Shown here: positions 61,381-61,882 of the stretch, one piece after another | Layout: the number at the start of each line of letters is the position of its first letter | Position numbering within the stretch: position 1 is the first letter of the stretch | Source: Eledone cirrhosa | Taxonomy: Eukaryota | Length of the DNA: 64,000 bases | Assembly: GCA_964016885.1 (NCBI GenBank) | Contig: OZ024742.1 | Location: forward strand, 89,032,001 to 89,096,000 | Reading direction: 5' to 3' | The notes under the pieces: generated by a model | What the model was told of the DNA's origin: nothing | Database searches by the model: none | What the model saw: only the letters and a program-made list of their open reading frames with translations | Made by a program: the position numbers and the translations under genes

Positions 61381-61882
61381 GTTATAATAATAATAAAGAA
61401 GATCCCGTAATAGGGTTCAATCGAGGGTAACCACAGTAAGTAAGGTACTCAATACATAGCAGAGCATAAATGTTTAATATAGAAAAGCTTCTACAGAACA
61501 AGAACTGTTTCATTCGTGAGAAATCATCAGGAAGCTGACTGTCCAAGTAATGATGGTGGTATTTATATATTTTCTGGTGGTAGAAGAGGGTGGGGATTGG
61601 AATGGGTGGAAGTCATTGGTTGATGGGTTTAAAGAAATTCTTTAAAAGCTAATTCTTCAAAGCTATAAATTATATTTAGAATGACTGAGGCTGAAAGAAT
61701 TCTATAAACAAGTTCAAGTTGGACTGCCACTCCTTATTTTTAAGTTTCTCAATGTCTATATTTCAGGTGTCTACAAGACAGGTGGAGGTCATAAATACCA
61801 CCATATTTACTTGGACAGTCATGTTCCTGATGATTTTTCACGAATGAAACAGTTCTAGTCCTGTAGAAGCTTTTATATATTA
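61381..61882 (-). mobile_element. diverged palindromic member of the 31370-35812 family
   Basis: same tail (ggtaaccacagtaagtaaggtactcaatacatagcagag); short inverted arm 61791-61882; inside (TA)n. Confidence 0.85.
61486..61536 (-). ncRNA. type I hammerhead ribozyme
   Basis: agcttc CTGATGA t ttc tcac gaa t GAAA cag ttcttgtt ctg TA gaagct; inverted copy at 61821-61871. Confidence 0.82.

Follow-up and report, generated by a model that had tools for sequence, protein, structure and literature searches.

The hammerheads most similar to the motif described here have been tabulated for the Hydra clade of PLEs by Craig (2021; PMC8557442). Members of this clade are marked by a CxCx5C linker, a CxxC before the E and a CxH after the N of the endonuclease, by a missing CCHH motif, by RWK and DKT motifs in the RT and by (TA)n as the target. 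File S2 of that work lists 25 Hydra-clade families in 26 rows (counted by eye), and 14 of these families have a U after the 5' core and a second U before GAAA. They comprise 11 families from Hydra, two from sea cucumber and one from a copepod, two of the rows being sequence-identical. The others have G-C (seven families), G-U (two), U-C (one) or an extra G together with A-U (one). The stems covary freely across the tabulated families, and the two U's were counted there as core and the motifs named canonical. The Hydra magnipapillata row in Fig S3 of Cervera and de la Pena (2014; PMC4209133) has the same U-U layout. A natural U10.1-U11.1 hammerhead was also described by Perreault et al. (2011; PMC3088659) as a rare variant, and U-U is given there, citing Ruffner 1990, as the best tolerated mismatch at this pair. 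PLE hammerheads cut slowly in vitro, and a double hammerhead has been proposed for them (Cervera and de la Pena, 2014; Weinberg 2019). In the anole PLE Poseidon the hammerhead was found to depend on protein and not to be required for insertion in vitro (Frangieh 2024; PMC11167929). The accessible text of PMC13282606 makes no mention of hammerheads.

The window analyzed here is a stretch of 64 kb of Eledone cirrhosa DNA, and all positions refer to it. Both strands were scanned with a descriptor that was composed after the motifs had been seen, and the outcome was compared with 20 block shuffles. The window contains 15 hammerhead-shaped loci, seven of them with U-U, whereas the shuffles yielded 0-2 loci each (mean 0.65) and not one U-U locus. 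One of the 15, at 5848, is low-complexity and probably due to chance. In the loci without U-U, stem II opens with G-C, G-U or an extra nucleotide, thus U-U is one of several states in the window. The scan also admitted a register that has a normal 10.1-11.1 pair and one additional nucleotide; no U-U locus was assigned to it. Several of the motifs without U-U stand in inverted pairs. The motif at 61486-61536 belongs to a group of copies referred to as family A (Table 1). It most probably represents a hammerhead in the pseudo-LTR of a Hydra-clade PLE, located in a 5'-truncated inverted insertion in (TA)n, and this copy appears to be a decaying relic. Judged from sequence, we assign this reading a probability of about 0.87.

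Table 1. Positions of hammerhead motifs, element copies and endonuclease remnants in the window
Feature	Position	Strand	Basis or remark
Type I hammerhead motif, family A (C-G subfamily)	61486-61536	-	Scan and drawn fold
Inverted 5'-truncated copy of the element 3' end (pseudo-LTR)	61379-61790	-	Long tail, ~113 nt past the cut; abuts (TA)n
Direct 5'-truncated copy	61791-61880	+	Ends in (TA)n shortly after stem I
Second hammerhead, within the direct copy 61791-61880	61821-61871	+	5' arm of stem I broken
19-nt piece of hammerhead 3' half	61975-61993	-	Inside (TA)n run
Family A hammerhead, A-U subfamily	35746-35796	+	CUAG palindrome intact; copy ends 21 nt past the cut in (TA)n
Hammerhead identical to the 35746 copy	31453-31503	-	Lies in the inverted arm (31370-32833) of the insertion with the 35746 copy; tail reaches 89 nt beyond the cut
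Family A inverted pair	41220-41410	.	Joined inside the hammerhead core; both halves 5'-truncated; (TA)n flanks
Decayed copy of family A or C	41018-41072	+	U-U kept, loop II deleted, stem III broken
C-terminal GIY-YIG-type endonuclease remnant	32840-33298	+	Hydra-clade motifs; starts where the inverted arm ends
Family B motif	13207-13257	+	Scan; U-U, U4A core, CUU site
Motif identical to family B 13207	11770-11820	-	
Motif identical to family B 13207	27941-27991	-	
Hydra-type endonuclease remnant upstream of family B motif	11823-12278	+	42% identical to 32840-33295
Family C motif	28794-28876	+	U-U, long stem II, CCCAUGGG palindrome in stem III
Further hammerhead-shaped motifs	26017-26102, 42576-42635, 58222-58276	-	Scan; stem II base G-C, G-U or extra nucleotide
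Further hammerhead-shaped motifs	42738-42798, 43722-43764, 38663-38743	+	Scan; stem II base G-C, G-U or extra nucleotide

The coordinates of the original prediction hold a hammerhead, but its strand, the minus strand, had been omitted. Read from 61536 to 61486, the motif comprises a stem I of 6 bp (AGCUUC/GAAGCU), CUGAUGA, a U, a stem II of 3 bp (UUC/GAA) with the loop UCAC, a further U and GAAA. Stem III consists of an A-U pair and CAG/CUG (4 bp) and carries a loop III of 8 nt. The predicted cut follows the GUA site, after 61492 and before 61491. Three stems are present and stem I is open-ended, as in type I hammerheads. The core, that is C3 U4 G5 A6 N7 G8 A9 / G12 A13 A14, A15.1-U16.1 and H17, is complete at 61486, 35746 and 31453. 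The usual R10.1-Y11.1 pair is absent and replaced by U-U (U10.1 at 61523, U11.1 at 61512). As a natural U-U exception has been published, this does not bar the motif from the type I hammerheads.

The motif was compared with the copy at 35746, which has stem I AGAUUC/GAAUCU and loop II UAAA. The third pair of stem I is A-U at 35746 and C-G at 61486, so the paired swap put forward in the original prediction is present. Altogether the two 51-mers differ at six positions, two of which form the swap, while two lie in loop II and two in loop III; the loops vary and the pairs are kept, as had been claimed. All six differences spare the core and all 13 pairs, for which P = 0.0036 with six random substitutions. 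The single A-U/C-G swap is weak evidence by itself, since a double change arose in 10%, 35% and 68% of simulated pair-keeping variants at 12%, 23% and 34% divergence, respectively. At 12% divergence all 13 pairs were kept by chance 9% of the time in the simulation. Thus the proposal that the compensatory change supports a hammerhead stands as to the fold and falls short as to the weight of the swap: a real type I fold is supported by the whole substitution pattern, the position in a PLE and the published covariation of the clade, more than by the single exchange. Within family A, identity amounts to 61/69 in the tail beside the motif, 45/51 in the motif and 106/138 upstream. Conservation in the adjoining tail equals that in the motif, hence part of the latter could stem from regional constraint or homogenisation.

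The surroundings of the motif are those of a PLE insertion. A (TA)n run is followed by the inverted arm 61379-61790, the direct arm 61791-61880 and a second (TA)n run; the direct copy forms a 101-nt inverted repeat with 61466-61566 (89%). Inverted pairs of this layout occur at four loci, namely 61379-61880, 31370-35811, 41220-41410 and, for family B, ~11660-13281, and the PLE layout given by Craig (2021) matches these pairs in (TA)n. All family A copies (31453, 35746, 61486, 61821 and the 41220-41410 pair) end in (TA)n. The arms end either ~21 nt or 89-113 nt past the cut site, which gives two discrete 3' ends ~60-70 nt apart. As in EN+ PLEs, a 5'-truncated copy stands next to an inverted copy, the tail is found at one end only and the hammerhead lies in the pseudo-LTR. 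The 61486 copy is homologous over at least 200 nt upstream with the endonuclease-linked copy. The head-to-tail units of a non-LTR retrozyme, each with a hammerhead, are not seen in the window, where the family A copies are inverted pairs. At the 41220-41410 junction a short palindrome lies within the hammerhead core, so that two half-ribozymes stand back to back.

The endonuclease remnant of the 31370-35811 insertion has, at 32840-33295, a CxCx5C linker, a CxxC before the E and a CxH after the N. A search at E up to 0.001 yielded 5,374 relatives. Among the 151 of these that were examined, CxCx5C, CxxC-E and N-CxH were present in 112, 144 and 128, respectively, and all 10 relatives of at least 550 aa end in the endonuclease and carry YRDD (RWK/RWR in 5/10, DKT or DKS in 8/10). 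Pfam yielded nothing above cut-off for the remnant or for eight long relatives. A close cysteine pair before YIG was found in only 2/89 scorable relatives. In the remnant two cysteines stand 9 apart before YIG (C-x8-C), looser than the tight spacing tested, and for this reason the CCHH motif is likely but not certainly absent from it. The Nematis clade, the first candidate, was dropped on the definition of the Hydra clade (Craig, 2021), and Naiad was rejected because the endonuclease is C-terminal here. The protein link of family A consists of this one locus and crosses ~2.4 kb of mostly simple repeats; no RT remnant of the family was found in the 64-kb window, in which only the endonuclease end survives. 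EN+ PLEs encode a telomerase-related RT and a GIY-YIG endonuclease in one ORF. The ~2.4 kb from the endonuclease stop to the hammerhead (33298-35745) are mostly (TG)n/(TA)n. As the last 1.5 kb of this stretch is mirrored in the inverted arm, the repeats were probably part of the element at insertion.

Further retroelement traces were seen in the window. A third Hydra-type endonuclease remnant at 19747-20142(-) is 31% identical to 32840-33295, and the scan found no hammerhead downstream of it in 16000-19760. A broken PLE of another clade occupies 147-3293, with RT pieces and a Pfam GIY-YIG match at 1526-2158 (E 8e-6); it lies between 346-nt inverted arms, and no hammerhead passed the scan there. 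A GC-rich, strongly skewed and broken RT/endonuclease element at 53098-54916(-) is PLE-like. A SINE-like dispersed repeat of ~100-190 nt is present in many copies (5255-5441, 5612-5758, 5972-6320, 13804-13987, 24107-24419, 24861-25001, 36453-36628 and 59807-59991).

Family A shares with the Hydra-clade hammerheads in the tables of Craig (2021) the type I form near the 3' end, the (TA)n target and the C-terminal endonuclease with CxCx5C, as well as a stem II of 3-5 bp with a loop of ~4 nt and a short stem III. The latter is ACAG/CUGU, as in family A, in several File S2 families without U-U. In contrast to the loop III of 1-3 nt in File S2, that of family A comprises 8 nt with an inner CUAG palindrome. 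The Octopus bimaculoides Hydra-1 motif in File S2 is without U-U. Four short probes of family A gave 0 matches in the supplement, in which line breaks might mask one. With the minimal hammerheads of Cervera and de la Pena (2014) family A has in common the type I form, the pseudo-LTRs, the palindromic stem/loop III and the predicted dimer action, and also opposite-strand pairs close together and a high within-genome variability. However, the consensus shown there has a conserved G10.1-C11.1 and an extra nucleotide after A9, whereas in family A there is a U on either side and stem III is longer. The variant of Perreault et al. (2011) shows the same substitution at the same pair and is not presented in that account as a trait of a retroelement clade. 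In Poseidon of Anolis two RT start sites downstream of the hammerhead set the tail, as is probable for family A, and the target is likewise AT-rich, but this element belongs to another clade and its tail measures 30-40 bp, compared to ~60-70 nt in family A (Frangieh 2024).

The drawn hammerhead fold of the 61486 motif has -7.2 kcal/mol against a minimum of -8.2 kcal/mol, and the energy of the 51-mer is no better than that of shuffles (z = 0.15). For the 35746 monomer, too, the minimum-energy fold differs from the hammerhead (P ~0.001). As a double hammerhead the 35746 form reaches -18.4 kcal/mol versus -8.4 kcal/mol for a pair of monomers, and its co-fold minimum lies near the double-hammerhead shape. 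The values for the 61486 copy are -16.3 and -14.4, a dimer gain of only ~2 kcal/mol, and the co-fold minimum is another fold. Two minority changes in loop III of this copy (61497, 61500) abolish the CUAG palindrome. In a minus-strand transcript of the locus the antisense copy comes before the 61486 motif, and the whole motif is predicted to lie in a long hairpin with it (-174 kcal/mol, z = -15). Because the loop changes remove the dimer palindrome and the neighbouring antisense copy would sequester the motif, the 61486 copy is probably inactive, and cleavage in its genomic context seems improbable. PLE-associated dimeric hammerheads were reportedly treated by Lunse et al. in 2017.

In a tandem transcript of an active element, two hammerheads would pair through the CUAG palindrome to form a double hammerhead, which would cut slowly after GUA, perhaps aided by the protein of the element. 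For the majority form of family A we rather favour such a slow, possibly protein-helped cleavage. In place of G10.1-C11.1, the clade would have inherited U10.1-U11.1, a non-canonical pair that is tolerated and probably slower. U-U entails the loss of the G10.1 metal contact. The RT-endonuclease of the element would then nick (TA)n, and reverse transcription would begin at either of two sites downstream from the hammerhead, which would yield the short and long ends.

Alternatively, the motif may derive from a PLE but no longer cleave, being kept as a structural or protein-binding signal by the RT start sites, with U-U and U4A as signs of relaxed selection. This is the strongest competing view, although we consider it less probable than cleavage, and it stays live in view of the protein dependence of the anole ribozyme and of insertion that did without it in vitro. 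Catalytic mutants of the anole hammerhead did not alter insertion in vitro, nor were there RNA-seq reads with an end at its cut site in the data presented (Frangieh 2024). Naiads thrive without canonical hammerheads (Craig, 2021), the conservation of the family A tail would fit a non-catalytic role, and family B keeps U4A; a mutational scan found low activity for mutants in the CUGA turn (Roberts 2023; PMC9901934). On the other hand, the three intact family A copies retain all catalytic positions, which the substitutions avoid, and the mismatch in question is the best tolerated one at its pair (Perreault et al., 2011, citing Ruffner 1990). Moreover, this view touches function only and leaves the PLE identity uncontested.

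Public DNA reads were used to assess the family beyond the window. Four of 16 public DNA runs (X1, X5, X6 and X14) were aligned to 61385-61790 with a cut-off of 80% identity, and 9,923, 6,926, 131 and 6,284 records matched in the four runs. Family A is high-copy. Two places collect loose ends that continue into TA-rich repeats: 61473, with 436 reads of X14 and 36 contigs of X1, and 61413-61415, with 1,339 reads of X14, 313 contigs of X1, and 571 and 14 in X6 and X5, respectively. Two piles of 3' ends are expected from two RT start sites (Frangieh 2024). At 61534, the 5' partner of the swap, the letter of the 35746 copy was carried by 793/1,081 reads in X14, by 0/156 (depth) in X5 and by 37/1,238 in X6; this position is polymorphic at the subfamily level. 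At 61497 and 61500 more than 92% of the X14 reads differ from this copy and have the letters that form the CUAG palindrome. No variants at U10.1 (61523), U11.1 (61512) or the stem I partner 61488 were among the 40 of 200 rows listed.

In all four runs the depth is at least 16-fold higher over 61413-61533, that is the hammerhead and tail, than over 61539-61790, and in X1 many loose ends lie at this drop. Either the subfamilies diverge beyond what the 80% cut-off admits, or the fall marks a short non-autonomous unit. In the latter case, the abundant form, including the 61486 copy, would be a SINE- or retrozyme-like element of hammerhead and tail that is moved by Hydra PLE proteins. Retrozymes have been proposed to derive from PLE pseudo-LTRs (bioRxiv 10.64898/2026.07.22.740005). 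In X14, 56 reads (13 starts) jump back 64 bases with ~13 letters between, at 61474-61537. They correspond to a ~77-nt tandem repeat with the whole hammerhead, retrozyme-like, somewhere in the genome of that species, which would suit a short unit. Yet the homology of the 61486 copy with the endonuclease-linked copy continues far upstream of such a unit, and the upstream identity of the subfamilies is ~75%, which lies below the cut-off and would alone produce the depth fall. In addition, the loose ends agree poorly with one another (consensus 0.41-0.57), a picture that mixed subfamilies or scattered truncation would give. A short unit is therefore rather unlikely, and a truncated PLE copy is preferred for 61486.

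In Rfam no hammerhead was found among the 115 matches in the window at E up to 1, so that all 15 loci were missed. The best local match of the 61486 motif was Hammerhead_3 with 12.5 bits, compared to a threshold of 48.5 (E 7.3). The miRNA and snoRNA matches in the window were rejected as simple-repeat noise. The family A pattern had 0 matches in viral contigs; one metagenome match, within apparent bacterial coding DNA and without stems, and two matches in prokaryote genomes without hammerhead stems were attributed to chance. That the fold itself arose by chance in an AT-rich repeat and that the swap is a coincidence would agree with the ordinary energy of the 51-mer, the low Rfam score and the frequency of double changes among pair-keeping variants, but this is already largely refuted by the seven U-U loci against none in the shuffles, the position at the 3' end of PLE insertions and an architecture as in the published Hydra-clade motifs (Craig, 2021).

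The scan agrees with the claim that U opposite U also opens stem II at 13207-13257(+) and 28794-28876(+). The former does have U-U, but as a hammerhead it is irregular: its core reads CAGAAGA (U4A), its site is CUU and its minimum-energy fold is not a hammerhead. The endonuclease remnant at 11823-12278 ends before the linker and has CxxC-E and N-CxH; no endonuclease remnant was found near family C at 28794-28876. Family C matches family A over 14 nt across the 5' core and over short stretches by the 3' core; the flanks of A, B and C are not significantly similar (z up to 2.1). The original prediction had counted three families as separate recurrences. As two of the three follow Hydra-type endonuclease remnants, they are probably not independent; as their flanks are dissimilar, a common descent of A, B and C is inferred and not shown.

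CAGANGA (U4A) cores occur at five loci, 11770-11820(-), 13207-13257(+), 27941-27991(-), 25278-25354(-) and 62858-62937(-). The last two have G10.1-C11.1 and are similar to each other, whereas the three family B copies have U-U. Between two insertions the family B motif shows 0/51 differences, compared to 15/95 in the upstream flanks. A U4A core at five loci in two lineages may be a more unusual lead than U-U. A literature search based on titles and the starts of abstracts found nothing relevant on a natural U4A hammerhead, and Lunse et al. (2017) may hold one.

The recurrence of U-U had been taken to suggest a distinct structural subclass that strict motif searches could miss. A recurring U-U group does exist, but as a clade trait that is already tabulated and not as a newly found subclass, given the variant of Perreault et al. 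(2011) and the 14/25 Hydra-clade families in File S2 (Craig, 2021). Rfam does miss the loci, but RNAmotif descriptors had already found the type. In the accessible parts of Craig (2021) and of Cervera and de la Pena (2014), U-U is not identified as a trait of the clade, and in the literature search the term was used only by Perreault et al. (2011). No paper that names it as a Hydra-clade trait, or assays such a motif, was found in the literature, and Lunse et al. (2017) may describe U-U.

With family A, a high-copy family joins a clade for which U-U hammerheads had been tabulated before; this is of little significance as it stands, and naming U-U as a trait of the Hydra clade and testing it would be a modest contribution. 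As Rfam models miss these hammerheads, ribozyme counts in such genomes are too low. It is conceivable, but we regard it as unlikely, that Hydra-clade PLEs possess a distinct and deliberately weakened hammerhead subclass, in which U-U would be fixed across phyla, U4A added in two lineages of this genome, and the ribozyme near-silent as free RNA until it meets a dimer partner or the RT-endonuclease of the element. If true, U4A would be a new natural active core and the motifs a test system for the role of PLE hammerheads. If U-U and especially U4A cores cleave only with the protein of the element, this would bear on what PLE hammerheads are for.
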